Assembly: GCF_964194025.1 (NCBI RefSeq)
Contig: NC_134474.1
Location: 36,952,001 to 37,016,000 of the forward strand
Direction: 5' to 3'
Source: Convolutriloba macropyga
Lineage: Eukaryota
DNA: 64,000 nucleotides
Shown here: positions 3,130 to 33,500 of the stretch, in pieces
Position numbering within the stretch: position 1 is the first letter of the stretch
Layout of the letters: the number at the start of each line of letters is the position of its first letter
Notes under the pieces: model-generated
Databases searched by the model: none
Seen by the model: only the letters and a program-made list of their open reading frames with translations
What the model was told of the DNA's origin: nothing
Translations under genes and position numbers: made by a program

Positions 3130-3869
3130 AATTTATTAATCGAATTGATGAGTAACACGTTTTAAAAAAACTTATAATTTATAAACTGACTGTACTTTTG
3201 TTTATATTTTCTGGGCTAAATTGAAAAGATCCTTACTATATAAAAATCTAAGCAATAAGTTTTAAGTGGAATATTAAAGTTAAAACGTTTGGTTGAATAC
3301 TGTTTCAGTTAAGATCATTTTCAAAAATTACGAGCAGAACAAACCATTTTCAGTCTGGTAAAATTGTTGAGCGATAAAGGCCACAAATAAAATTAAGTAC
3401 ACTAAGTTTTATTAAGAGTTAAAATATACGTAACTAACACATTTTGAGCCCAAATCTACTTTGAGCGCGTCACAATATAGGAATATTTTGGCAGCAAAGA
3501 GAAGAAAGTTTTAAATTTCTATTTTTCAGATGGTCTCTTTTGTCAATATTGTTGACAATAGACTTGCCATTTGTTCAATTGTCTTTATATTCACCTGTCG
3601 TCTAAGTTGTGAATTGTTTATGTTCTTTCCATTCAAGAGAAAAAACAGTTCGGAATTTATTTTGATTCCATTTTTTGACAATTTAAAGCGCGTCTTGCAT
3701 CTTTGCTTAATTTTTCCCCAGCTTAACTACAAAGGCTTAAGTTGCCGCAACTTATTTCACTATATCAAAGTACGTTTTCAACATAGCTTCCAGAGCCAAT
3801 GTTTGCGGTTTACAATTGCAATTTCCGATTCAACATAACTCTCCATCCGCAAAACGTGAAGTAGATGAA

Positions 3870-4100
3870 GAGAGGGAGGTACTTTTGCAATGAAAGAAGG
3901 GGAATTAAAACAGATTTATTGAATAAAGTAACACTTTTTCCCACCTTTAGCTACAAAAGTATTTGCAGAAGTCGACGTTAATATCCTAAAGCAATGACAG
4001 TTTTGACACGGGACTTGTCAACGCATCAATTGATGCTCTTACGAATATTGCCAAATCTTGAGACCACCTTGACAAGATTTCCAAAAATTTTAATCAGAAA
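3870..4100 (-). mobile_element. Possible Penelope-like GIY-YIG C-terminal relic
   Basis: Broken minus-strand frame EH...FRILTSTS..F....K.YFI....NSP...VPL resembles the end of Penelope ORFs; very decayed. Confidence 0.3.
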
Positions 4101-7100
4101 AGACCGCCCGCTTTTTTACTATACTGAAGGTTGAGGTGATGTTTTTTTGTAAAAAATGTTATTTTGGTTATGATCACATTCTATGTTATGTATATTGAGA
4201 AACTATTTCCCGCACGCTTTCTACAGTAAATGATAGAGAAATTAATTTGCTGAAAACATTAGTGTAGAGCTCGACCGGAACGAATTTGAAAGATCTTGCA
4301 CGATAACACTTCATTAATGTATTTTTGCAAGATAGACTTTTGTTTTGCACAATCTTACAAAATAAATTTTATTACAAGAATCTTGCAAGATTTTACAAGA
4401 TAGCCAGCCTTCCAGTCTCGAATGGGGTTGTTTTGAACTCAATTGGTGCCTTTAACAGTACCTCAGCACTACATTAAAAAACCAGCAGATGTATTTGTAG
4501 GTTTTTGCATTTTTTGTCAACTTTCCGAATAAATAGAAGACAAATTTATAAAGGAACAAGAAGAATAAGTCCCTAACATCAATAAAAATTTCTGATAAGA
4601 ACTGTTGCATATCTTTAATAGCATGAACAAAGCTACCGGAATTCGCATTCATGCAGTTGCGCGGTGGTGTTGTTTAGTCAACAGATATTTCTTGAACTTT
4701 TTTGTTTATTCTGTAAATATAGCTGAAGGAAATTGATTGGGATTTATTTACTCTGAGATGGATAGGAGGGAGTATTGGTCAGGCTGCAGGTCTGCACAAA
4801 CTGTGATCAATCAGTGAACTAAATTTAAAATAAAAGAGTGTGAATTAATTTTTCAGGTACCGATTTTTCCCAATTTGAAGGTCGAAAAAATTCTTTTAAA
4901 CTCAGCAATGATTAATCAATCTGGCGCTGAACGGAAAGCGTAACAGCCAGAATGGAAATTGGTAAACTTGATTTAAAACAAAAAGGAATGAATTGTATTA
5001 ATATAGTTGGTTTGATCTTACAGATTCACAATTAAAACACCATTTGGGGAAAGCAAATAACCGGCTGCTAATGGTAAACAAAAAAACGAAACCGGTTTCA
5101 TTTCTTGTCTATATAAAATGTAGTGCAATATTTCATTTTCGTTCACTCACTCACCCCCCCCCCCCCCCCCCCCTGGAATAATGGAAGAACAGAAAGCATT
5201 ATAAGTAAATAGAAGTAACAGTATTTGAGTTAATTGTTCTAACTGTGATCAGAACGTCGTTTATCGATTCGCTGTTTGCTCTGGGACAATAGCGGTATTC
5301 CATATCTTTATCTCACTGGGTTTTCGTAAATACTTGACACGTTTTTGTCCCAATAGCTGTATAAAAACGCTCTCCATATTCTATGTTTAGTTCTAGGCCA
5401 TGACATTCTGTTTTGTCAGTTAGGAGGTCAATTTGTAATATATTGGAAACAGTGGTGAAATAGTTCTAAAAATCTAATTGGGCTTTCAAGCTTAGGAAAC
5501 CCCCCCCCCCCCCCCCCCTCTGTTTTCAAAATAGCTGTGAGTTTTTGAGATTTGCATGTGTATGCGCGGAGTTTGATGAGGAAAAAAATCCCCAATGAGT
5601 TAAGAAAACTCAAGAAATCAGACCATATCTTGCATTTAGTTTTCGCTCAATCTCTTATATTTAGTCTTTCCACTTATTCCACAAGGAACGTTTTGAGTGT
5701 AATTTTCTCAGCATTCCTCTCAAATTTCACTCACGTTTAATGTTTTTTTTTTTAATTTGCTCTACTCAGTAAGACGCCAGCTAAATAAAAATTTATTTTT
5801 TTTTCGATTTTTGTGAGAAAACAGACCAAAATCTTTACGATAAAAATTAGAGCGTATCTTTTGTTAAGCTCATAATCATTTTCATTCGAAATTCGTTATA
5901 CGAGTAAAGTTAATTCACAAAAACAAGTGGTTAAAAGATCAAATCTTTGATATTCTTACCAAAATGTGTCTTATCTGTTGTTAGTTTCGATATTGTATTT
6001 CGCATATCATTAACTAAAAGGCACTGAGGTTAAATTTACCATAAATACAATGTGAGTGAGTGGTATTTTAGCATTGATTAGTAAACAAAGTGAGTGGGAA
6101 TATTGACAGGTAGATATGCCTTCTGCAGTCAAAAGATAAGTCATTAGATAGAATTATTTCCCTCACGATAACCTCCGAACTCAGCCTTGCTCTAAGCAAA
6201 GGATACAGATGACGTTTTTAGCAATCGCTCTACAGGCCAGAAAGTGGAAACAAGATCAAATAATTCAGAGAAAAAAGATGAAGCTAAATGAATGACTTGT
6301 CAGAAAATGGACAACCGTGAACTTTGAACAATATTACGGAATAATATTAATAGGTTCCCTTAACCGACCTTCAACACTTGAAACGAATTCAGTTTTAGTG
6401 GAAAAAAGGCAGTGCCATTGTTTAAATTTTCAAGTAAATATTGCTGTATTGCGCTCAGAGTTACCTGAAAACCCAGATATATCAAACACTGATTACTGAG
6501 GTTAAAGTTCCAGACACAAGTCAACTCTAACCAGACTATGTCCAAACTTCGGTCTCTCATCAGACCGTGCTAGACCAAAATCACACCTGAACGGACTCGT
6601 GCGACCCAAATTTTTGTGCCACTTTTGTGCCACAGAAATTTATGGTGCGACTTTTATCATATTAATTTTTAGCGTAACTTCAGTGCGACCAAAACCTCTA
6701 GTGCGACTTTCGTGCAACCCATACTTGAGTACATAAAGTGTAGGTTGAAAAGAAAGAAAAGTTTTCTAATTAGCGGTTACAAGAGTTGCTGAAACTGAAC
6801 CAATTGAGTGCAAGCTCCTCAAAGTCAGCAGTCTTAATCATCAAGACTTTCAGTCTAACTTGCCTAAGAAAAGATTAGCTATTTGATTGTTTTTTGTGGT
6901 AATGGGTTGTTCAAATTGACACAGATTTTGTGCGCGAGGTTATTGGTGTAAATAGAGTCTATGTCTTCGAAAATTGTTGTTCGAGTACGCCTCGGAAATT
7001 GTTAGCTATTTCACGCTTTTTCTTGCTTTGAAAAACGCCAGAGCTGGGTCTCAGTCCGGACGATAAATGAAGAAGAAAACGTCAACCGTAGAGACTGGAA

Positions 7101-11149: not shown

Positions 11150-12450
11150 AAGAAAATAACTTGTAATTCACCAGAAAAGATAAGGGAGTAGTAAAAAACG
11201 ACTTGGTAACAATTAGATAAAAAAAAGAACAAAAACAGTTAAGTCGCCTTTTTTAAACAATTTATTTCGAAGTAATGAAAACCATTAGAAATCAACTAAG
11301 AAATCCCATAGGTGTACGATTACCAATGCTTCTATAGAAGGAATTAATAACTGCCAGTATTCAATTGTTTATGCGGTTACAAAAAGAACAACAAATAGAC
11401 ACTAAACACAAAGTCAAATAAAACTTGGCAGAAAACTCTTTTGAAACCATAAAGCCATACTATGGCCATCAAAATGTTTTCAATTGCACTTTCTGCGACC
11501 ACCAAGAATGTATTATGTGACCTTTCATAAATAAAGCTAGGTAACAAGTTGATAAAAATGAAAAAAAAATGCAAAAATAAGTAACAAATTAATTTTTTTC
11601 GAAAAAAAAAAAATTATTTCCAAAGACATGAACGCCATTATTTACAGAATGAAATAAATTATTAGTTTTGTATATTCTTCCAAAAAAACCCTTGAGAGTT
11701 GCACTTATCCAAAATATGTCTTATGACTACAAAAAGAACGTCAAACATGACAAAAATCAAAAATTAATTTACTTTTTTTTCCGTGTCGAAACCAGTAAAG
11801 TCAACGAATTCTTTGAAAACATTAGATTGTGTGACACAAATCTACCTTTCAAAACTTCTTTTGACAACGATAATTTCATATTTAGACTGTAATTAACGAG
11901 ACTAGGTAACAAACAGACAATAAAAGGAACAAAAATGCCAAGTTAAAAAGTGTTTTTTTTTAAATTTGGAAAACAATTGTTTTCAAAGTCATGAAAGCCA
12001 TTATCTATCTTCTAATATCAGATCATCTACTCTTCCAGGAAAAACCGGGTCATTGAATAGGAAATTTTATACGACTAGAAAGACAGAATAAAAACGTCAG
12101 TTGAAGACAAAATTTAAAAAATTCAATTAACTTTTTCGAGAAAGTAGTGTCGAAGCCGTTAAAATCATAATCTTTATCTGCAAGAATTTCAATAATTTGA
12201 ATGATGCTTTATATTGAAAGCCAATAATATGATATTTGAACTGTCAATAAAGTGATAAAGTGACAAAACTAGAAAACGTGAAAAATGGGCAAATACCTAA
12301 ATTTTAAGAAAATGTGAAATCTAGTTGTATCGAAGCCATTAACCTTAGCCAAAGGCCTAAAACCGCAATACAGAATAAATTTGATTTCAATAGAATGAAG
12401 AAGCACTCTTTCAATGCTGACAATAAGCTACAAGTTGAACAAATAAAGAG
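11150..12450 (-). repeat. Internally repetitive dispersed repeat, inverted relative to 26050-26905 / 29147-30150
   Basis: Recurrent gtcgaagccatta-like motifs are the reverse complement of the aatggcttcgacac motifs at 26-30 kb. Confidence 0.55.
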
Positions 12451-13199: not shown

Positions 13200-13425
13200 T
13201 CACTCTATTTTCTCAAAATTCAAACCTCGATAAATCCCTGTAAGAAACGGAATTTCAAAAAAATCTTTTCAATTCCATATTCTACGCCGGACAAGCTTTC
13301 TAATGATACCAGTCTTAACTCTACGATAAATATATCGATCGGCCAAAATTGACTGAACAAAAAAAACCCATTTGAGTATATAGTTCCTTCCCCCTCAAGA
13401 GGGGTCGGAACAATTAAATTCATAA
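13200..13425. repeat. Dispersed repeat end; inverted homolog at about 25326-25520
   Basis: ccatttgagtatatagttccttccccctcaagaggggtcggaacaatta is the diverged reverse complement of taattgtttcgaccccacttgttgggggaggacctatatactcaaatgg. Confidence 0.85.
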
Positions 13426-15759: not shown

Positions 15760-15907
15760 AGTAGTAATAGGGCGAGCAAGGCTCCCCGGGGGGGGGTGTA
15801 GACCCCATGTATTAAGATAGGGCATAGGAGTAATTTTTGAGAGAGGGTCTACACTAATGTATTAAGATAGGGTATAGGCGGCGTACATGTATTAAGATTA
15901 GTAATAG

Positions 15908-15999
15908 CGGCCGCCACGTATTAAGATTAGCGGCCGCCACGTATTAAGATTAGCGGCCGCCACGTATTAAGATTAGCGGCCGCCACGTATTAAGATTAG
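15908..15999. repeat. 4 x 23-bp perfect tandem repeat CGGCCGCCACGTATTAAGATTAG
   Basis: Counted directly. Confidence 0.98.
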
Positions 16000-16269
16000 G
16001 AATATCCTCCGCAATGTATTAAGATTGGGGATAAATCTAGGGGTGTTCCAGGGGGTGAGTAGTAAGGTGGGAGCAGATCAGGGTGATTTTTCGGAGCCAC
16101 TTGTCACGTGATTTTAGAGGTCATTTAGGGATTAGCAGGGAATTATACATGCAACGCGCAGGGAATTGCACAGTCAGCGCGTACGTACAGGCGGGGAATT
16201 GTACAGGCAGCGCGCATTAACGGATATTTTCCCTCGTAGTAAACTTCATCATTTTTTGGTTTAACCACA

Positions 16270-16485
16270 GCAATGTATTAAGATTAGGTATAGCCGCCGC
16301 AATGTATTAAGATTAGGTATAGCCGCCGCAATGTATTAAGATTAGGTATAGCCGCCGCAATGTATTAAGATTAGGTATAGCCGCCGCAATGTATTAAGAT
16401 TAGGTATAGCCGCCGCAATGTATTAAGATTAGGTATAGCCGCCGCAATGTATTAAGATTAGGTATAGCCGCCGCAATGTATTAAG
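16270..16485. repeat. 7.4 x 29-bp perfect tandem repeat GCAATGTATTAAGATTAGGTATAGCCGCC
   Basis: Counted directly; shares the GTATTAAGATTAG core with the 23-mer. Confidence 0.98.
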
Positions 16486-16639
16486 GTCAGTTATATCCAC
16501 TAAAATTGAGAAAATTGAAAATTTTTAAAAGAATGAATTATGAAGGTACAAAAAGACAGACACAGTATTAATCAAGTACATTATAAGTAATTTTAAACAC
16601 AACAGAGAGCGCTCACAATACGAAAATTGATTCAATAAA

Positions 16640-19600
16640 TTACAAGTTCAGGGGTACAGTATGAATTCCATCAGATAACACTTTTCGTTTAGGATAAAAA
16701 TATGAGAGTCCTTTCTTTGTTTGTTCATAGGTAGCGGCGCAGTGGTTGATTGTCCGAAATCCTCTATTTGTAGATGTTAAATTGATTATTTCTTCCATCA
16801 CTCGCCGATATTTTTCCAATGGTCCATCTCCGGTCTCTTCCAATGTTCGTTTGTTCAGTCCTTTGCTGCTGAATTTGTACTTATCCGATTTGGCATCGTA
16901 GCAACAATATGTTTTGCTACAGAGACAAATCATTTCAGTACATCTAAATTCTTCGTTGAACAGACCTGGTTCACGCTTATCGTGCTTTTTATGTTTATCA
17001 CAACAAGTTCTAGGGAAGAAATTTTGTACAGCATCAGCTTTGAAAGAATCATCACAATTGTGTTCCCTCAGAGTTTCCCAATCTGCTTTTTTAGATGGAC
17101 GAATGCAATCGTACAAATTATCGTGCGCTAGAGCTAAGTATAAGGAGTCAGTGTCCACTTCTAACTCTTCGAACGTGTCGACATCGCAAAATTTATCAAA
17201 AAAATTGTAATAAAGCTCCAACATACGTAATTTTGCGTACTGAAGTATAAAAAAGCCGACTATTATCGGTTCACGGTGCTCAATTTTTGATTTTACAAGT
17301 TCAACTTCGTTTAGTTCTTTTGACACACTGTTAAGTCTCTTAAACAATTTCCCGTTGATAGCTTTGTGTGTCTTTTCATCGTTCAAGTATTTTGTCTCTG
17401 TATGTCTGCTTCTGTCCATGATTTGGTAACCATAGGAACTATTCCCTAACAATTTCATTGTTTCTGCAACAACGCTTGATTCAGGATTTTCATCTCCAAC
17501 TCTTCTAGCATCAACAACCGATTGGACAAAATTGTTGAAGCATTTTTTGGGTGTGTACTGAACGAAGCGATAAATTTTGGTGCATTTTAGCCCAAGACTA
17601 AGGTAAAAATTGAGTAATGGTGTTATGACTGTTCCATTCTCCAACTTGAAGCTTGAAATTAACATGCGTTGCGGTTGCTTGAGTAAATCGTTATCAATTG
17701 CATAATCCCTCATATAATCACCAATATCTGCTCGACTAACATTAAAGTTTTTAAAGATTGGTGGAAAGTTCGAGAACTTGTATTTCAACCCATCTGGAAC
17801 TTCGAGATCACACTGAACGTAACCAAATAGTTTATCTTCTCTTATCTTTGTAAGTAGAGATTCTTGAGTCAGAGGTAGCTTGAATGGGAAATTGTTTCTC
17901 ACGTGAATTTTTACAGATTCATCACCTTTGACAGTTTCCCACCAGTTACATTCCCATATCTCAACAACTTTATATCCTTTGTTTCGCAAATAGTCTCGTC
18001 TTAGTTCATCGTATTCCCGTTTCTTTAATCCTTTCTGAGTCTCTTCCTCTGACATGCTTGCTCTTGCTTCCTGACATGCACAAAAGTGAAAGTAACAACC
18101 CATTGCTTCAAAAATAGTTTTACAGTGAGCACAAAATCCGTCTACATTAAAACAATCAATCTTTTTCTGAGTTCCAGTTGTGTAGTAGCTTTCAATAGTG
18201 CAGTTAGGACGTTGAGATTGTAGGTACGACATAACCATGTTCTCAAATTTCCTCGATTTATTTTGTCTAGCTTTAAACTTCTGAGAGTCTGAATCAAACT
18301 CCCATCTAGTGTAAAGTCCAGTGGGCATTTCTTGACACATGGAGAAGGGGTAAAGTTGACTGGCGTCTATACCCACAATTGATTTGCAAATGTTTTCTGT
18401 GTTTCGAATGTAGGTTTGATCCACAATTGCTTTTCTAGTAAACACAATAGAGGGACCACCGGTCATATCTTCGCGTATTTTATCATGTAAATCTTTGTCT
18501 GCTTCAACGAAAGGATAGAATTTGCTATTAGTTGATTTGTGTAGACAAATATTTGCTAAATTAGGTAGTGTGCAACCCAGTTTTAACATATCAATCCCTT
18601 TGTTATGATAGAATTCCATCATTTTCTGCATCGCTTCTAGTGTCGGGACAACATCTTTGTTATTATACCACCTGACAAAGTCTTGAAAAGTTGTCATTTG
18701 TTCGTGCTCCCACACACTTTCCAGGTAATTGTAGTTGTCGAATCCCGAGGGGGGCACTACCTTCAACCTAAGTTTTTTCAGAGCCTCCTGTTGGGAAAGT
18801 CCACTATTCAACAATTTTGTGAAATCCGTAAATTCTTTTTCCAAGGGATTGTGATCTCTCAACTTACTAAAGAAACATTCGTAAGGGGGTAGGAAAGTTA
18901 CATCCAATTTGTTTGGTGAGTCGAACCATTCATAAGGGAAAAATCCTTTGGTCTCATTTGTCTTGTAAGCTTTGAGGAACGAATCTAGTGATGTTGCTCC
19001 ACCAAGAAAGTTTAGAATATCGAGAAACTGAACATCGCCAAATTTAAAGGATACAAAATGATTAGCTTTTTTAATAACCGTTGGTTGAATATCGCGCTCG
19101 TGAATGAGGTAGGGTAGTAAATAAGACTTGATAAGATTCAGATCATATTTCCCGCTGTTGAATCCAAATACAGGTAAAATGCTGACATAACGTTCAAAAT
19201 GTTGTTGTAGTTCGAGAAGTTGATTTTTCTGAATTTGGAGGAATTGAGTCGACATATCAATTTCTTCTTCTTCGATATATTGAAATTCAAACATTGGAGT
19301 ACTCTCATCTTTCCTTCCATTTAGCTTCTCGAAAATAGAACTTACTCTGTTTTTAATTGCATTTTCAATTGAGGAAAATTTTTGCAACATTTCTGCTTTA
19401 CTTCTGCTAGCTAATTCTTCTAATGCTTCAACAAAAGATACAATTAGTGTCTTGGGGTCTCTGTTGCAAAGGAAAATAGGTTCTTGTAATAAATTAGAGG
19501 AAATTGACACAGATATTGGTTCATGTTTTCCTATCCAAGTAGTTGTATTGGTATCTTTTAGTTCATTAGATGGAACGCAGATTGATTCGAAGTCAAATAC

Positions 19601-20989
19601 AGCCAAGTTTTTGAACAGTTTTTGTTCTTCCTCATATCCAATTCCAAAACCGTCAAATTTATCGAACAAAGTTTCTCTCAAAGTGTAAACACTCTTCGGA
19701 TAAATGTGCTGTATCCTATCTTTACAAGATTTCACGTGACGGTGGAAATTACCAGCACGCTTAATAAAGGTATCACAATTAGGACAGCGGAATCGTTTGA
19801 AAAACGTGTTGATATCATCAACATAGCAAATGTGGTTGTTGTAGCGCAGTAGATTAATGTTGTTCTCGTACATATCAATACTTCTTCTGGCAAGTTCACC
19901 TACAAAATCCCCGTCCTCAATGTCAATGTCATAAATGAAAATGTTGTGTTTTATAGCATTTTCAACAAACACAAGGTGATCCATTGACACTCCTCTAAAG
20001 TTAATTGCGTCATGACCAGACTCGTGGAGAAAGTCACTGAACAACTTAGCTGCGTTTGTTTCCAGCTCAGCTGATCCATACAAGTGAACAGCCACAGCTC
20101 TAAACAAGCAAAGGTAGTCCTTGTAGGTTTCTCCGTATACATTCGTAACAAGACAATTTACATCGCTTCTCCTCAACAACTGTTCAGGTATAACAGCATC
20201 TAAACATCCCATTGGGATATTGTTGAGAAGAGCACAGAAAACTGTTACATTCGTAGTTAGTGCATACCGCCATTTTGTGTTTGCCCTTTCTTGAGCACAA
20301 GTCTCAATCAAATTCAATTTCTCTACTCTATCCTGAAGTGAGACTAAGTCTCCCTTAGAACAAAGTAAATGAGACTTCTCAAAGAAGGTGTTGTTCTCAT
20401 GAGCATAAAAGTATCGGTATTCGTCTGTGTCAACATTTCGTAAAATAAATCCCAGGGATAAATTTATTTTTGCAGCACAGTTAAGCTTTTCAAACACTTC
20501 CTTCAGTTTTTCATTAATTTCGCTGGGATCAAGTCTCGACAATTTAAAATTGAATACTGTATGTCTCCCATTCTCCATCTCAGTATTGTCAAAGAAGTGT
20601 TGACAGGCACTAAGTTCCTGCTGTAACTGTTCGTTGTTCCTATCCAATTCTTCCGATTCTAGTACTTCTTTCAAGCTTTCGCTGGATTTGGTTCCAACTT
20701 TGGTCGATGTTCCGTGTTTCCGTCTCTTATGTTGTTGAAGAGAATAAAAACTTGGAAATTCCTCCAAGCATATAGTGCACACTGTACTAAGCTTCTTTTC
20801 TTGAGGAGCGTGATGCTTAGCAAGGTGGTAGTTCAAGTCCTCTTTCCTCTTTGTGTAGAAATGTGGACACTTGGGACATTTTAAAGTCCCACTATCACAC
20901 GATTTTTTGTGTCGAGCCATTTGCTGCTTGACAACCATTTTCTCGCACTTTGAGCATTTGACAGGTAGATTTCTATCAAGAGGAGGCAT
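16640..20989 (-). CDS. polB: Protein-primed DNA polymerase B (1449 aa from first ATG) with zinc fingers, OTU-like domain and inserted Vsr-like nuclease
   Basis: ExoI VFDFES, ExoII FNSGKYD, ExoIII YNNKDV; TGGPS; motif A DASQLYP, motif B KLLGNSSYG, motif C VDTDSL; SKTY and KG. The ORF-track start at 21007 is TTG; the first ATG is at 20989. Confidence 0.95.
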   Translation of the reverse strand: MPPLDRNLPVKCSKCEKMVVKQQMARHKKSCDSGTLKCPKCPHFYTKRKEDLNYHLAKHHAPQEKKLSTVCTICLEEFPSFYSLQQHKRRKHGTSTKVGTKSSESLKEVLESEELDRNNEQLQQELSACQHFFDNTEMENGRHTVFNFKLSRLDPSEINEKLKEVFEKLNCAAKINLSLGFILRNVDTDEYRYFYAHENNTFFEKSHLLCSKGDLVSLQDRVEKLNLIETCAQERANTKWRYALTTNVTVFCALLNNIPMGCLDAVIPEQLLRRSDVNCLVTNVYGETYKDYLCLFRAVAVHLYGSAELETNAAKLFSDFLHESGHDAINFRGVSMDHLVFVENAIKHNIFIYDIDIEDGDFVGELARRSIDMYENNINLLRYNNHICYVDDINTFFKRFRCPNCDTFIKRAGNFHRHVKSCKDRIQHIYPKSVYTLRETLFDKFDGFGIGYEEEQKLFKNLAVFDFESICVPSNELKDTNTTTWIGKHEPISVSISSNLLQEPIFLCNRDPKTLIVSFVEALEELASRSKAEMLQKFSSIENAIKNRVSSIFEKLNGRKDESTPMFEFQYIEEEEIDMSTQFLQIQKNQLLELQQHFERYVSILPVFGFNSGKYDLNLIKSYLLPYLIHERDIQPTVIKKANHFVSFKFGDVQFLDILNFLGGATSLDSFLKAYKTNETKGFFPYEWFDSPNKLDVTFLPPYECFFSKLRDHNPLEKEFTDFTKLLNSGLSQQEALKKLRLKVVPPSGFDNYNYLESVWEHEQMTTFQDFVRWYNNKDVVPTLEAMQKMMEFYHNKGIDMLKLGCTLPNLANICLHKSTNSKFYPFVEADKDLHDKIREDMTGGPSIVFTRKAIVDQTYIRNTENICKSIVGIDASQLYPFSMCQEMPTGLYTRWEFDSDSQKFKARQNKSRKFENMVMSYLQSQRPNCTIESYYTTGTQKKIDCFNVDGFCAHCKTIFEAMGCYFHFCACQEARASMSEEETQKGLKKREYDELRRDYLRNKGYKVVEIWECNWWETVKGDESVKIHVRNNFPFKLPLTQESLLTKIREDKLFGYVQCDLEVPDGLKYKFSNFPPIFKNFNVSRADIGDYMRDYAIDNDLLKQPQRMLISSFKLENGTVITPLLNFYLSLGLKCTKIYRFVQYTPKKCFNNFVQSVVDARRVGDENPESSVVAETMKLLGNSSYGYQIMDRSRHTETKYLNDEKTHKAINGKLFKRLNSVSKELNEVELVKSKIEHREPIIVGFFILQYAKLRMLELYYNFFDKFCDVDTFEELEVDTDSLYLALAHDNLYDCIRPSKKADWETLREHNCDDSFKADAVQNFFPRTCCDKHKKHDKREPGLFNEEFRCTEMICLCSKTYCCYDAKSDKYKFSSKGLNKRTLEETGDGPLEKYRRVMEEIINLTSTNRGFRTINHCAATYEQTKKGLSYFYPKRKVLSDGIHTVPLNL

Positions 20990-21447
20990 TGTATTGTTGT
21001 GATCCAAAATAAATTGAATAAATTTTAAGTAAATTGCCGAGCAACTGTATCTGATAATAAAGTGAGAATGAATACAATTTTTGGTTTTTTAGTTAGAATA
21101 ACTTTTATGACTAATTATTTCCATATAAGGAAATGACGAAATTTCTATTTTTAGTAACAATACGCAATACGAAAGTTCAAGAACTTCCTACGAAGCAGTC
21201 ACAGTGTTACATTATACATTGTATTTAAATCCAGAAAACATCAAAAATGTGTAACCTTATTCCTTGGAGGAAAATCGGAAATCTTAAGTTATATTTATTT
21301 GTCATATTGCTGATTTGTGTTACTTTTTTTACAAAACAATACTATTCATCCCAAAACAAAATCTATCTGTCAGATGTTTGATCACTTAGAGAATACAAAT
21401 ATTATTGTAAACAAACTAATTTTGTAATTTCATCGATAAAACACTAA

Positions 21448-21777
21448 ATGTGTTTTTACAATAATATTAAAACATTAGAGAAGAAAACTCCTACTTTAAT
21501 TGAAGATAACTTATATACAATTGACGTTAACGTGATTATATTACAAACTACAAACCAATCAAATTTTAGTATTAAGAAACTTGTTGTAAAAGTTAATGAT
21601 ATCGTTTTGCTTATCTCATTCTCTCTTTTAACATTTTTTTATTTTAATAGATTAATACGTGAAATTTTACTCATTTGTGAAACATGTCGATCAAAAACCA
21701 CTTACAAATATTGGAGAAGATTTACAAGAGAAAAGAAGGTATACCTGATTCATACAAAATTGACGAAATTGATGTAG
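21448..21777 (+). CDS. Small Polinton ORF, unknown function (hydrophobic stretch, CxxC)
   Basis: 109-aa ATG ORF divergent from polB, overlapping the next ORF. Confidence 0.35.
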   Translation: MCFYNNIKTLEKKTPTLIEDNLYTIDVNVIILQTTNQSNFSIKKLVVKVNDIVLLISFSLLTFFYFNRLIREILLICETCRSKTTYKYWRRFTREKKVYLIHTKLTKLM

Positions 21778-22271
21778 ATTCATACTTTTTTTACAATTTT
21801 TTGGACATTTTCACAAAATCCAACAGAATAATCCGATTTAGTAAAGGACTTGAGTATGCAACGTTCTCTATTAAAAAATTTGAATATGAGGAGTTTATTG
21901 CGAAACAGTCTTTTGATTTATCCTCAGAATTGCATGTAAGCAAATACGAATTGTTGTTCATTTTGAACTCCGTCCCCGATATATTGGAACAGTACAGAAA
22001 TATTTCACAAACAAACTTTGTTCCTCTCCCAGAACCAATAACAATAACTTCTTCACTACAGAGTGCTTTGTACTTCCATTATTACAACGACTACAATGCA
22101 GTGGGAGTACTGATCAGGTTCGGAATTCGTTTACCTAACGTATATATACAGAAATTTGATTCCAAAAATGGAACATTTTCCGAGATTGATCTGAAATTTG
22201 ACGAATTGGAAAAAATTTATCAAAGCTTGACTTTTTTGGTAAATTATGTCACTTCATTTCAACTTAAATAG
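21684..22271 (+). CDS. Polinton ORF, 195 aa, internally duplicated, possible tandem PC4/Pur-like fold
   Basis: Intact ORF in AT-rich DNA. Repeats IIRFS..ATFSIKKFE..SELHVSKYEL and LIRFG..NVYIQKFD..SEIDLKFDEL align with each other. Confidence 0.7.
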   Translation: MSIKNHLQILEKIYKRKEGIPDSYKIDEIDVDSYFFYNFLDIFTKSNRIIRFSKGLEYATFSIKKFEYEEFIAKQSFDLSSELHVSKYELLFILNSVPDILEQYRNISQTNFVPLPEPITITSSLQSALYFHYYNDYNAVGVLIRFGIRLPNVYIQKFDSKNGTFSEIDLKFDELEKIYQSLTFLVNYVTSFQLK

Positions 22272-22783
22272 ACCATTTTAGGTAAAAGCATAGTCGGAAA
22301 CCTGTATGTATCCTTCACTTCCTACCTTGTTAGAAAATTTTACCCAAATTTGGATTTGAATTTCAGTTCGTCCAGAAATATCAAGTTAAACGTCACTTTT
22401 TCTCATAAAACCTTCCATCTTTGGTTACTGTTGTCTGATTGGACAGAGGACACTATATATAGAGGTTGTTGATTTTGACATTATCATTTGATCCAACTTC
22501 TCTGAAAACATCATCACTACTTTCTCACATTATACTAACTACTCCTCAACATTTTATCCTGCTATCGAGCTCCAACATTCACTTTCTTTTTGTTTAAAAA
22601 TACTTACTTTAGTTCTAACTTTTGTTTAAATCTAATTTATATATCCTGTTCCCTTCCTAAAAAGGAAATTTGCTGCTTTATAACTTTCTCTCCACTGATT
22701 GCTTTTATCACGTTCTCGACAAGAATCTTTTCATCCATTCTCATCACTTTCTAACAAAAACCTCTTCTATCATTTATTCCAAA

Positions 22784-23512
22784 ATGGAGTTCACCGTTCA
22801 AAATAACAACCTTCTGTACTCATTTTCTTTTACTGAGGATATTGCTCGGATAGGAGTTCGAGATTTATCAAACGGACTGTATGAGTCTCTGATCACTTTA
22901 CCCATTACTGTGTGGCACATTATTGAGCACCAGCGACAACAGTTTGATACATATCATCAGGGACAGGTCCCAATCACAGAGAATCAACTCGGAACTCACG
23001 CGATGGGACACGAAGTTGCTGTTGTCAGTGGACACCACTATCCTCACGTTAATGGATCTGATTTTCCTGCCAACTATGTAGCTGGAAATATTCAGTACAC
23101 ATTTCCTTGGGAGGAAGGGCAAATTCCAAACAGTTGGTTCACTACACCGGATGTAGGTGAGGTATCAGGTCCGGAGGTGGAAAATAATCTTCTCCAAATA
23201 GCTTCAAGAGCTCATAGAAGAGAACATAGCGAGTTGAGTATTGATACTAGTACCACCACGTCATTTAACGATCTGGAAAACTTTGATCCAGCGCAGTACT
23301 ATGGATCTACTGACATGTCAACTACACCCTCGATGGCAACCCCATCGATTGAGGAAGGAAAAGCTCACAACCCTATCTTTTTGAGTGATGTACCTAATAC
23401 TCCAGTCACTGTTCAACCAACTCAACTACCTGGTAGAATTGAGCGACAAAGAGGTTTCGGTAATGAAATTCAGAACTTACCAGAATATGTTATTGAAACT
23501 CTTTTTGAATGA
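22784..23512 (+). CDS. Polinton ORF, 242 aa: PC4-like N-terminus plus acidic S/T/P-rich tail
   Basis: AAAATGG start context, TATA-like TTTATAA at about 22677 and AATAAA at about 23560. RIGVRD...ITLPITVWHII resembles the PC4 pattern VDIR...GI(S/T)L...W..L. Confidence 0.72.
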   Translation: MEFTVQNNNLLYSFSFTEDIARIGVRDLSNGLYESLITLPITVWHIIEHQRQQFDTYHQGQVPITENQLGTHAMGHEVAVVSGHHYPHVNGSDFPANYVAGNIQYTFPWEEGQIPNSWFTTPDVGEVSGPEVENNLLQIASRAHRREHSELSIDTSTTTSFNDLENFDPAQYYGSTDMSTTPSMATPSIEEGKAHNPIFLSDVPNTPVTVQPTQLPGRIERQRGFGNEIQNLPEYVIETLFE

Positions 23513-23699
23513 TTTCTATGTTCCATTTTGTAAACTATTTTGTATTTGTTCGTAAAAATAATAAAGTTTCTGAATACCTTTTGGGTGTTTCGTATTAAAT
23601 TTTTATTTTCAATTTTATAATTTTTTTATAGTTTTCCAGAATAAAAGATTAACACGAAAGGTTACTTGATAATTTAGGTACTTGGTTATTATTGAAAAT

Positions 23700-24085
23700 T
23701 TGTTTTTCGACAATTAAGAAAAATACCGAATTTAATTTTGATATTTAAGAAAATTGTCGAATTTATTTTCGACATTTAACAAAAAATGTCGAGAAAAAAT
23801 TCGATTTTTAAGAAAAAATTACTGTTACAAATCCGATTTTTAAGCTGCAAGAACAGATTCAAAACTTGTCATTTTAAAAATTATTATAATTTATGTTTTT
23901 TGCTTAAAATCATACCGTAAAACTAAGAAAAATGAGAAAAAATTGCACATTTTGCACGCACAGTTTGGTAACATTTTTGATTTTTAATGAAAAATCTGAG
24001 GTTCTATTTTTGACTTTTAACAAAAAATGTTGTGTGAAAATTCGACATTTAACAAACAAATCGACTTCAAATTTCGACTTTTAGA
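23700..24085. repeat. AT-rich intergenic degenerate repeats centred on TCGA (ttcgacatttaacaaa)
   Basis: Multiple tttcgaca/tgtcga/ttcgattt units between convergent ORFs. Confidence 0.7.
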
Positions 24086-24125
24086 ATATACACTAATAAT
24101 AAAACATTTTAGTACAAACACTTTA

Positions 24126-24530
24126 TTACTTTCTAACTTCAAAGTACAACATGGGGTTATCAATTATTCCATGACCATCTAGTAAACAATCAACAATTTT
24201 TATTAATTCACTCTCATACTTTGAGTTCTTAAGAGACTGAATTCGGTCGAAGAAGGATGATCTCAATGTTTGTGTGCTTGCATTTCTTTGCTCAGCTCTC
24301 AGTAGATGTCTCTTGAACTTTTTTCTACTCAATCTCTTCTTAGACACGCTGGGTAGTTTTTCAACAAATTTGTTTTCCGAATTATGTTGTACCGCTCTCT
24401 TCAATTGGGTGAAAACAAGTCCTGCTTCTTCGTTTGTGTGACCGAAAAACTGATGTTTATATAAGGTGTATAAGCAGTCCACTGTCTGATATTGAAAAGA
24501 TAAATCATCCAATTTTTTGGAGTAATTCAT
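24126..24530 (-). CDS. Polinton ORF, 134 aa, basic NLS-like tract
   Basis: ATG ORF with KKRLSRKKFKR; AATAAA on the minus strand at the stop. Confidence 0.65.
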   Translation of the reverse strand: MNYSKKLDDLSFQYQTVDCLYTLYKHQFFGHTNEEAGLVFTQLKRAVQHNSENKFVEKLPSVSKKRLSRKKFKRHLLRAEQRNASTQTLRSSFFDRIQSLKNSKYESELIKIVDCLLDGHGIIDNPMLYFEVRK

Positions 24531-24846
24531 TAATGGAAGATGAAATGAGAATTATGTGATAAGAACAATTTTTCAGAGGACAAAAAGTGTAATTGTGAGA
24601 CGCAACAGAGTATTCACTAGTAAGCAAGTAAGGTTTATAATCCTTAACTGATACGCAAATGAACAAGGCTTTCTCACAAAATTTTTTATAAAAGTCAGGT
24701 AAAACTTGACACATAACTGCTGCCATTCTGTAACCAAAGTGATTTTGGAGTGATTCTTTTAAACTACCGTATAAGGAAATAACGCAATTCAGTTCAAACA
24801 CAGCGAAAATTTCGTTTGAAAAATGACACAGTTCAAGAGACAGCAA
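24505..24846 (-). CDS. Polinton ORF or exon, Cys-containing, unknown function
   Basis: 113-codon open frame overlapping the previous ORF. It starts at TTG directly after a tttttctag acceptor-like site, so the true start is uncertain. Confidence 0.45.
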   Translation of the reverse strand: MLSLELCHFSNEIFAVFELNCVISLYGSLKESLQNHFGYRMAAVMCQVLPDFYKKFCEKALFICVSVKDYKPYLLTSEYSVASHNYTFCPLKNCSYHIILISSSINELLQKIG

Positions 24847-24891
24847 CTAGAAAAATCCGTTGTTTTACTTGTTCTAATTATTTCAAACACT

Positions 24892-25080
24892 ATTACTCGC
24901 TAATGCAACACAGACGTGCTAAACATCAAGATAAATATGCTGCTCTAGTTCAAATGTTTGCTCAACTTAAAATTTCTGACTAAGTTTCCTTATAAGGAAT
25001 TTTTGCAAAATGACGCAATTGAACTAGAGCAGCATATTTATCTTGATGTTTAGCACGTCTGTGTTGCATTAGCGAGTAAT
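24892..25080. repeat. Perfect 62-bp inverted repeat (24892-24953 / 25019-25080) ending at the gap
   Basis: Exact reverse complement with a 65-bp spacer. Confidence 0.97.
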
Positions 25081-25280
25081 NNNNNNNNNNNNNNNNNNNN
25101 NNNNNNNNNNNNNNNNNNNNNNNNNNNNNNNNNNNNNNNNNNNNNNNNNNNNNNNNNNNNNNNNNNNNNNNNNNNNNNNNNNNNNNNNNNNNNNNNNNNN
25201 NNNNNNNNNNNNNNNNNNNNNNNNNNNNNNNNNNNNNNNNNNNNNNNNNNNNNNNNNNNNNNNNNNNNNNNNNNNNNNNN
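25081..25280. other. Assembly gap (200 N)
   Basis: Run of N. Confidence 1.
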
Positions 25281-30550: not shown

Positions 30551-33500
30551 ATAGTAAAGTAAAGTTTATTTAACCGATTGTTGAAATAACAGCATTTTAT
30601 GATAAGCCCAATACAAATATGTCAGCCAAACAATATGTAACAAAAATGAATGAGCTATTTGGCTCTTCAAAGTTGATGGCCATAGAGATATAAAGTTCTT
30701 GGCTAATTTATAAATGAAATCATAGATCATAGAAAATAATTCAAACAAAGTATTTTCGTCTGGTATAAAAGTTTTAGCAAGCATTTTGAAAAAAAGCGAC
30801 GCTCAAATTAGAGCACAAATTTATATTGGGTGGTAGCAAGTCTGCGCTTTTTAAACAGTTGTATGCTTTTCGGAGCGTGTTTTCTAGTGACTTTTCCTTA
30901 GTGCGCGTCCTACTGTATTGAGAGCGTAATCTGTTCTTTGCGACGAGTATTATAGACAGGATCCAGACCAGAGCTTTCAGTGGGGATTTTTAGGGGCAAT
31001 TTGGATCTTAATAGTAGTAGAAGTTCTTTGAAAACTTCACAGAAACACAAATCGAAAAATGTTAACAAGTTGTCCTGCTCATAGATGTTACGAAGGGGAT
31101 CTATTTTTCGTTTGAAAAAGATAGCTCGAATTATCCTTCTATGGCAGTTTTCAAGATGCTGTAAGGCTATTTTTCAAGCACTTCCATATATCAGAAGACC
31201 ATAAGTTACAATTGATTTCGCATAGGAATGATAAAACGTCAAAATGTGTTTAATGTTGAAAAGGTTTAAAATTTTAAACTCGGTATAAAATGCCACAAAA
31301 TTTGTTCAATTTCTTCGTTATATACAATTTGTCTTCTTTGTACGTCAGCTTCGGGTCCAGATAAACTCCAAGGTACTTGCATTTGTGACCTGTAGCTATT
31401 TCTTAATCCTTAAATTTGAATATGCCGCTGACTTGCGATTTTTACCGGAATGAATTAATGTGCACTTTGAGTAGTTCACTGATAGTTTGTTCCATTTGAA
31501 CCAGTCAATCAAAGGGATCAGTTCTTGATTAAAAACATCGAATTCCTTGCCGGAACCCACTAGTGTTGTATCATCAGCAAAGAGACTAACTCTGCTTTGC
31601 TTAATTTGATTTGATAGGTCGTTGATATAAACGACAAACAAAAACGGGCCCAGGATTGAGCCCTCAGGAACACAAGTTTCAATTACTATTGTTCCAGTAC
31701 ATTTCCTTCGATGACAGAAATACTGAGCTCTATCGGACATGTAATTTATCAATATTTTTAGATTTGGCTCACGGAATCCGTATCTCTCTAGTTTTTCCAA
31801 GAAAATTTTATGATCCAGCGTATCAAAAGCTTTTGAAAGATCCAGAAAAATTGCATGCCCTTGCTGTCCACGCTCAATACCTTCTCTGATGTAATCAGTT
31901 ATTTTTGCTATAGCATGTGCACAGGCGCGGTGAGAACAGAATCTGAAATGTCGTTGGTTGAACAGGTTTTTAGTCACAAAAAATTAAACATCTTAATATA
32001 GAGAACATTTTCAAAAACTTTTGAGAAACAATTCAAAAGACTGATTGGTCTGTAATTTCGACAATTTAAGTAGTTTCCTTTTTTGTATACTTTAAGTAGT
32101 TTCCTTTTTTGTATAATGGTGAGATTTTTTTTCAATTTTGAGGCATTATGGAGAAAAATTTTCTCAAAGAATTTGTTAATAGCTAAAGCAAAATACGGTT
32201 CAAGGAATGGCGAGCAACATATGAAACTTTCATTACAAATGCCATCGTTACCAAAACTTTTTTTGTGTTTCATGTGGGATAAAATATTTGCTATCTCATC
32301 ACAATTTGTTGGGAAAAGAGGCATCGACCCAACAATTTTTTCCACTGAAAACGTTTCAGACGCTTGCTGTATCCTATCCGATACCGTTCTACCAATTTTC
32401 GCAAAACAATCATTCACTTTGTCTTTTTTTGGAGTTTTGTGATTGACCATATCATAATTAGTTATAGAGCGGAAAATTTGAAAAAGTTCCCGACGACATG
32501 GATTGGTTCCTATTTTTTCATATTCTCTATTTTTATCTGCGTGCGGATTTTTTGTGTTACATCATTCCTTGAACGCTGATATCAAAGTTTGTTTTTATCG
32601 GTCGGAGAATTCAGCCATAAATGAAGAAATTTGTTCCTTTTATTGATCGCGTTCTTCATATTGTTTGTTATCCAAATGCCTTTTCTTTAACAATTGACTT
32701 CACGCAAAGGTGCAAACTTTTGAATTGTATCCATTATTGATTTCAATATTTCAATGTAAATATCTAAATATCTTCGGCAGTGACGTTATCAAGATCAGTT
32801 TTTCGCAGACTTTGGTCCCGCACGAACAAAAATTTAAGACTGTTTTCACCCTTTAGCTTTGAAATGTCTCGCTGCCAATTTGGTTCTTCCTTGATAACTA
32901 GCTTTTTGGTATTGCTGGTGAACACCCCCTGAATTGCAAAATGATCACTCTTAGTTGTTGTGATAGTTTCAGTTGCTATATATTTTCCCATGGTTGATGG
33001 CGTGACTCTAGTCGGTTCGCAATTTTGCACTTGGAAATCAAATGTTTGAAATGATTTGAGATATTGTTCAGTTTCATAACATTGCTTAGGTATATCAATA
33101 TTCACATCAACAAGTATAATGGTCTCGCCGTTTAAATTGTTTAAAAACAGCAACAAGTTCTCAAAGGCATCCAGAAATTTTGTCAACCGGGAATTTGGTG
33201 GTCTGCAAATCAGGCAAAAACGTTTCTTGTTTCCGTCAATGCCAATTTCGATTATCAAATTTTCAATTCGATGGTATTCGATTGTTTAATTGTTATGTGT
33301 AGGAGATCGTTTCTTACATAGAAGCCAATTCCACCAGCTCTTCGCGAGTCATTGAGGGATTTAGAAATGATTGGGTGATATCCTTCGAAGTGATATATTA
33401 CTACCGGATCTTCCTCTGCCAGCCAGGTTTCCGTAAGGCCTATCAGATCCAGCTTTGTACCAAAATCGTCTACAAAGGTTACCAATTCGTCAAAACGACA

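Follow-up and report, generated by a model that had tools for sequence, protein, structure and literature searches.

What would a nuclease domain do inside the polymerase of a Polinton? The question is raised by a 64,000-nucleotide stretch of the Convolutriloba macropyga genome (hereafter the window), in which a first-pass annotation had noticed a Vsr/DUF559-like nuclease within a Polinton polymerase (pPolB), had mentioned published fusions of this kind, and had proposed a nicking, mismatch-processing or junction-resolving activity. The mention of published fusions proved right in the available parts of the sources. Jeong et al. (2023) reported a VSR domain in the pPolB2 of molluscs and of marine nematodes such as Trissonchulus latispiculum, which is the same domain in the same Pol_A/VSR/Pol_B order as in the window (PMC10748475, Suppl. 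Figs 1 and 9), and the title of their Suppl. Fig. 10 reports conserved catalytic residues; the words "appear functional" also stand in a figure title of that paper. A VSR-like insertion of ~140 aa in Group I, credited to Kapitonov and Jurka (2006) in the accessible text of PMC10328495, agrees with the window in length, in nuclease family and in lying inside pPolB. The Vsr-pPolB fusion is thus already published, and the window copy adds one more family. Our literature searches found no function or assay for a polymerase-internal VSR, including in the available part of PMC10748475; the word "VSR" is absent from PMC8097293 and PMC12721341, and "very short" from PMC8502044. The same searches did not find in print a domain site ahead of Exo I or one Vsr family at three sites, and of all the features described here only this three-site pattern may be new.

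The Polinton and its polymerase gene

Comparison with sister copies in the genome, reading of the sequence and translation of the open reading frame (ORF) gave the following features of the element in the window.

15760–16500, plus strand: terminal inverted repeat at the left end of the Polinton, beginning with AGTAGT and containing tandem repeats (sister-copy comparison)
15760–25025, no strand assigned: left half of the Polinton as found in the window, 96–99% identical to sister copies (sister-copy comparison)
16640–20989, minus strand: pPolB ORF of 1449 aa, intact, pPolB2 type (ORF translation, motifs)
17882–18307, minus strand: Vsr-like (EDxHD) nuclease domain of ~141 aa, aa ~895–1036, in frame (carriers compared with empty-site homologs)
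25026–25280, no strand assigned: end of the element in the window, a fold-back copy (25026–25080, ~55–65 nt) followed by a run of 200 N (sequence reading)

All six sister copies examined have AGTAGT//ACTACT ends with terminal inverted repeats and measure 18.4–19.7 kb, within the 15–20 kb expected of Polintons, and five of the six are flanked by a perfect 6-bp target site duplication; the window contains the left end only. Polintons are described with (AGT)2//(ACT)2 ends and 6-bp duplications (PMC8097293). Sister copy C16, which is 99% identical over 8.7 kb, encodes an rve integrase (E 2e-11) and a Pox_A32 ATPase (5e-5), together with a match to Peptidase_C5, the adenoviral-type protease, that falls under the cut-off (0.003). 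Where capsid genes would be expected, the sister copies have ORFs of 442 and 270 aa without a Pfam match; another element contains a relative of the 442-aa ORF at 42%. The ATPase, integrase, capsid and protease genes of the sister copies are missing from the window, whose copy ends earlier, at 25025, and the small ORFs of the window element at 21684–22271, 22784–23512 and 24126–24530 had no Pfam match. A small, capsid-less element type was considered and ruled out, since the sister copies are full length and the window copy halts at the fold-back and the N run. Beyond the fold-back and the 200 N (window 24892–25280) lies different sequence with inverted similarity to 13215–13416. Elsewhere in the window, at 31396–33285, motif reading found broken reverse-transcriptase/endonuclease-like frames, apparently of a decayed LINE. 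The genome search gave 131 scored matches of 84–100% identity among 2904 candidates, and the window pPolB family is a very large, recent expansion in C. macropyga.

Pfam and motif reading showed that the polymerase begins with C2H2 fingers, followed by Exo I–III (motifs at aa 466, 610 and 775) and by motifs A (DASQLYP, aa 875–881, window 18347–18367), B (KLLGNSSYG, aa 1179–1187) and C (DTDS, aa 1279–1282). An AlphaFold model of aa 454–1449 (pLDDT 87) had phi29 polymerase as its top match (Foldseek E 1e-10; Z 19.0, rmsd 3.4, 523 aligned), and motifs and fold together identify a protein-primed PolB. As read from motifs, the N-terminal part probably also includes a TP/vOTU region. The motifs DYLC...NNHICY at window 19823–20119 (minus strand) suggest a vOTU protease with intact Cys and His (cf. 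PMC11161782).

Predicted fold and active site of the insert

The insert begins ~20 residues past the motif-A Asp, and its borders are good to about ±8 aa. The distance from that Asp to V1059 is 171–197 aa (median 185) in 58 carriers, whereas it is 42–50 aa (median 44) in 29 empty-site homologs, and the difference gives the insert its size of ~141 aa. The in-frame insertion between motifs A and B, annotated at first as 17930..18270 (aa 907–1020), was thereby borne out through a survey of presence and absence among homologs. We take the motif-A Asp of phi29 polymerase to be residue 249. The TPR1 region of that enzyme comprises residues 261–358 and binds terminal protein and DNA, according to the available parts of PMC2175359 and PMC6921018. 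By its offset from motif A, the insert probably lies at the start of TPR1.

Searches with the insert alone gave the Pfam families MTES_1575 (E 4e-4) and DUF559 (1.6e-3), both below the curated cut-off, and the three best matches among PDB sequences were all Vsr (E 0.2). An insert profile raised the Vsr match to E 5e-6, and a 39-sequence profile, searched against 177,635 PDB sequences, matched nothing but the three Vsr chains (E 5e-8 to 1e-7). The AlphaFold model of the insert (pLDDT 94) ranked Vsr and I-Bth0305I first in Foldseek (E 0.002–0.01) and Vsr 1cw0 first in VIA-align (Z 9.8, rmsd 4.7, 117 aligned); a RAP-type mitoribosomal protein, at Z 9.1, ties with it. Hjc resolvases appeared only as weak matches (Z 4.5–4.8), and the proposed junction resolving found no direct support. 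On the predicted structure and the profile matches, which agree with the Vsr/DUF559 assignment of the first-pass annotation, the insert is a nuclease domain of the Vsr family that has been joined in frame to the interior of a Polinton polymerase. An intein was rejected, as the window pPolB has no HINT match in Pfam at E<=1 and the insert model has no part that could be a splicing domain. A terminal His-Asn-Cys/Ser/Thr after the insert is absent from the window and present in one of the 58 carriers. No precise insert-skipping joint occurred among the 15 joints listed of 49 (DNA contigs, three runs); these 15 look like random deletions in decayed copies.

The predicted functional residues, within the peptide NVDGF...FEAMGCYFHFC...DELRR...EIWECNW (aa 948–1016) and upstream of it, are as follows.

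18242–18244, minus strand: E916, likely counterpart of Vsr E25 by its helix position; E in 21/21 rows of the window's clade
18140–18142, minus strand: D950, predicted metal-binding Asp, Vsr D51; invariant (47/47 and 101/101)
18107–18109, minus strand: E961, acid at the Vsr F62 position; E or Q in 99/101 domains
18074–18097, minus strand: C965-x2-H968-x-C970-x-C972, in which H968 (Vsr H69) is the predicted general base and the three Cys are predicted zinc ligands (alignment)
18008–18010, minus strand: D994, Vsr D97; replaced by Thr in most of the distant relatives (alignment)
17948–17950, minus strand: C1014 in the WEC motif, predicted to be the fourth zinc ligand, Vsr C117 (alignment)

H968 and D994 were matched to H69 and D97 by direct alignment, and D950 and E916 to D51 and E25 by motif/helix position in the model. 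The alignment also placed C965/C970/C972/C1014 on C66/H71/C73/C117, which we take to be the numbering of the Vsr zinc ligands, E961 on F62, M963 on H64 and F967 on W68, whereas W86 falls on E983 or a gap. The "(H/E)" in the signature given by the first-pass annotation had merged two positions, E961 corresponding to F62 and M963 to H64. In the accessible text of PMC3239194, the active site of Vsr consists of D51, H69, D97, H64 and E25, W68 and W86 form the wedge that recognises T:G, an extra acid at the F62 position is typical of I-Bth0305I-type homing enzymes, and I-Bth0305I lacks two features of Vsr, its zinc motif and its long helix. Both are kept in the insert model, the helix as H89-111. 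Compared with E. coli Vsr (1cw0, 1vsr), the insert shares the fold (Z 9.8), the counterparts of D51, H69, D97 and probably E25, the zinc motif and the long helix, but it is fused to a polymerase, lacks W86, has Phe for W68, Met for H64 and Glu for F62, and has no Dcm-like partner that we could see. With I-Bth0305I (3r3p), as described in the same available text, it shares the fold (Z 7.3, rmsd 4.2, 87 aligned), the EDxHD residues and the F62-position acid (E916, D950, E961, M963, H968 and D994 in the insert); unlike that enzyme, it has no N-terminal NUMOD module, keeps the zinc motif and long helix, and does not reside in an intron or intein. Separate N-terminal DNA-binding repeats are absent from the 141-aa insert, which is a catalytic domain only, and occur only in free-standing relatives. 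As far as the residues tell, the insert combines the EDxHD set, the homing-type acid and the Vsr zinc motif and long helix, without the mismatch wedge.

These features bear on the possibility that the domain is a true Vsr-like mismatch nickase, which would cut at T:G or other mispairs in the wake of the replicase and thereby start short-patch repair, for example against methylcytosine deamination. Vsr itself nicks T:G on the 5' side of the T. Vsr is its nearest solved structure by both sequence and fold, the zinc motif and long helix that I-Bth0305I lacks are kept, and in the window's clade the positions of Vsr 25, 51, 69 and 97 are filled by E, D, H and D. However, W86 is lost, W68 is Phe and H64 is Met, no methyltransferase match was obtained among three sister-copy accessory ORFs and four window ORFs scanned, and the CpG observed/expected ratios of the element (0.84) and of its flank (0.83) give no sign of deamination pressure or protection. 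We consider mismatch processing, one of the activities first proposed, to be quite improbable.

Within the insert, the window's clade (21 rows) has the pattern E916/Q941, mostly with M963 and D994, whereas the other carriers with the insert after motif A have mostly A or M/E/H/T at 916/941/963/994. E916 occurs together with Q941 in 21/21 rows of the window's clade and E941 without E916 in 37/37 others, a swap that counts as a single evolutionary event. Exactly one acid, at 916 or 941, is thus kept, as expected of a working site. A second Cys/His cluster, C930/C953/H955/C956 (window 18122–18202, minus strand), is found only in the 21-row window clade and may be an extra zinc site.

Conservation, inheritance and distribution

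In an alignment of 47 carriers, made up of the window and 46 of 85 homolog matches, D950 is conserved in 47/47, H968 in 46/47, C965 in 46/47 and C1014 in 45/47. D950, G951 and H968 are kept in all 101 domains drawn from three insertion sites and from free-standing proteins, these domains having been chosen by a profile that itself contains the three residues; the catalytic Asp and His, first judged intact in the window alone, are in this sense conserved among homologs (101/101). The dN/dS of the insert was 0.05–0.06 between subfamilies (a rough value, with dS above 1) and 0.10–0.18 in three closer pairs, and that of the exonuclease domain was 0.04–0.20. As estimated from these ratios, purifying selection on the insert is comparable to that on the exonuclease and the remaining polymerase.

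Trees of 58 carriers with the insert after motif A (site 1) were compared: each of the 12 splits that had strong support in the nuclease tree was recovered in the polymerase tree, without conflict, and nuclease and polymerase distances were correlated (0.72, P 0.001). By these measures the nuclease domain at site 1 co-diverges with the polymerase and shows no sign of homing. Occupancy of site 1 switches once on the polymerase tree (83 of 89 rows, after removal of 2 outgroup rows and 4 short ones; support 71). Outgroup branches are very long, and the switch may be a gain or a loss. The mollusc protein P0069 of Littorina saxatilis (36%), with its insert at the same site as the window, and the HNH-type P0082 are placed in the window's family by a pPolB tree. 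At least five related subfamilies in C. macropyga carry the insert, at 49–87% identity to the window protein, and no empty allele was found among 36 candidates scored with an insert-less query.

The wider distribution was examined in metagenomes and protein representatives. Of 74 metagenome loci, 58 yielded an ORF with both flanks: the domain follows motif A in 33, precedes Exo I with the motif-A site empty in 4, and is absent from that ORF in 21, three of which have one before Exo I, in a broken frame lying upstream. A profile search of 1.84 billion representatives returned 11,364 matches at E<=0.001, and the best 149 were classified as 59 after motif A, 24 between Exo III and motif A (site 3), 3 before Exo I (site 2) and 63 unplaced by pattern; the last are mostly fragments, two more of which lie before Exo I by eye. 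Site 2 is occupied in pPolB2 (L138:1384-1728, L146, L149:488-841, L155:1059-1361, L157, L135, L144, L129; P0152, P0188, P0227), where the motif-A site is empty and the domain sits in the linker ahead of Exo I. The site-2 carriers form one clade of the polymerase tree (support 100), and an integrase accompanies two of them (L144, E 9e-10; L146, E 8e-5, under the cut-off). At site 3 the domain stands just before RDAFFGGRT (P0124, P0200, P0226, P0229 and 20 more among the best 149 of 11,364), in a different pPolB type with the motifs RDAFFGGRT...DFTSLYP, which is presumably the Group I Maverick/Polinton type. All three sites adjoin conserved motifs. Two copies of the domain in one protein occurred in none of 89 rows, and a scan of viral contigs with the carrier alignment gave 20 pattern matches, none of which was confirmed.

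Nine free-standing, homing-endonuclease-like proteins among the best 149 of 11,364 (P0155, P0173, P0182, P0186, P0196, P0198, P0209, P0221 and P0235, but not P0234, a site-1 polymerase fragment) have tandem Cys/His, DUF723-like zinc-ribbon repeats (DUF723 in P0155, E 3e-4) with the Vsr-like nuclease at the C-terminus, and they are a candidate source family of the insert. In a nuclease-domain tree of 101 rows and 107 columns, site 2 formed one group (98), and the free proteins were interleaved with sites 1 and 3 with weak support, a pattern compatible with more than one order of the three insertions. Taken at face value, the three different sites in relatives suggest that the domain was captured more than once.

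The invariance across sites bears on the possibility that the domain is catalytically unimportant and merely extends TPR1, in a structural or DNA-binding role that helps processivity or the docking of terminal protein. RAP domains of the same fold do score as high as Vsr, phi29 TPR1 binds terminal protein and DNA (available parts of PMC2175359 and PMC6921018), and the window's clade gained its second Cys/His cluster (C930, C953, H955, C956). Such a role is nevertheless highly improbable, for the catalytic Asp and His are the most invariant residues, including at the two other sites where a TPR1 role is impossible.

Alternatively, the domain would still be a homing endonuclease, selfish or competitive, whose in-frame presence is tolerated although no splicing removes it. 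Polymerase genes without an insert in co-nuclear Polintons would be its target, and cutting them would spread the nuclease or harm rivals. This is suggested by the nine free-standing nucleases behind tandem Cys/His repeats among the best 149 of 11,364, by three insertion sites each beside conserved motifs, and by the F62-position acid that marks I-Bth0305I-type enzymes. The accessible part of PMC11161782 reports diverse homing endonuclease domains at different positions and takes them as traces of intein invasions. Families with an empty site 1 also coexist in the C. macropyga genome, but they are only ~25% identical. Against homing are further the missing DNA-binding module, the vertical inheritance and non-patchy occupancy at site 1, and the absence of an empty allele among the 36 scored candidates or the 15 joints listed of 49. 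Homing enzymes are expected to decay once fixed, whereas constraint on the insert continues after fixation. We regard homing as unlikely.

Nuclease-free relatives exist: no Vsr was found in 16 pPolB2 rows of the polymerase tree with both sites covered, nor in six-frame scans of 16 empty loci (3.7–13.8 kb, partial), one of which (L142) has a clear integrase next to the polymerase (E 4e-7). The domain is thus not universally required. Other nucleases also lie inside Polinton polymerases. An endonuclease VII, without Vsr, is found inside the exonuclease domain of a distant Polinton group of C. macropyga (L079:2006-5908, E 4.9e-8; L082:1636-5652, E 0.0015, under the cut-off), and P0082 has an HNH-like motif in the interval between Exo III and motif A. 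The C-terminus of P0082 (aa ~1420–1744) is a long post-polymerase extension, primase-like by eye, with no Pfam match reported. The nuclease-free pPolB2 locus L114, one of the 16 empty loci, has free-standing GIY-YIG genes at 3700–4221 and 11439–12005, one of them directly upstream of the polymerase, and the pPolB2 proteins P0073, P0075 and L101:2-4828 carry a C-terminal NADAR domain (E about 1e-13).

A proposed nickase tethered to the replicase

We favour, with a probability of about 0.5, the reading that the insert is a domesticated, polymerase-tethered nickase acting on the replication or excision intermediates of its own element; a DNA-nicking activity of the insert is plausible. The catalytic domain of a Vsr-type homing endonuclease would have been captured without its DNA-binding repeats and then inherited vertically with the polymerase. 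At the start of TPR1 the nuclease would adjoin the terminal protein and the primer duplex, and the polymerase may stand in for the lost repeats as targeting module. The substrate would be a branched, flapped or end structure; cutting might, for example, free an integrated strand or end and thereby allow the start or the completion of protein-primed synthesis.

The domesticated-nickase reading draws on the Vsr/I-Bth0305I fold, the invariant Asp and His, the low dN/dS, the co-divergence, the single change at site 1, the acid always present at 916 or 941, and the unrelated nucleases (EndoVII, HNH-like) inside other Polinton pPolBs. It is weakened by the nuclease-free pPolB2 relatives, which show the domain to be dispensable, by RAP as an example that a Vsr fold can be non-catalytic, by Met for H64 and, in most relatives, Thr for D97, and by repeated entry at different sites, which also fits a selfish nuclease. 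We suggest tentatively, and with some doubt, that Polinton replicases repeatedly gained internal nucleases (Vsr-like at three sites, HNH, EndoVII) because a replicase-tethered nick supplies a missing step of the cycle, namely element release or resolution of intermediates.

The window copy offers a clean, intact and strongly constrained example for the role of nucleases inside Polinton polymerases. The known host range of pPolB2 could widen if the host counts as Xenacoelomorpha, given 0 pPolB2 in 2 xenacoelomorph genomes in Suppl. Table 2 of PMC10748475 as available. Polymerases with the domain at each of its three natural positions, and relatives that have no nuclease, are ready comparisons. 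If the domain nicks the ends or branched intermediates of its own element, it would supply the exit step of Polintons and would explain why unrelated nucleases have repeatedly entered their polymerases.
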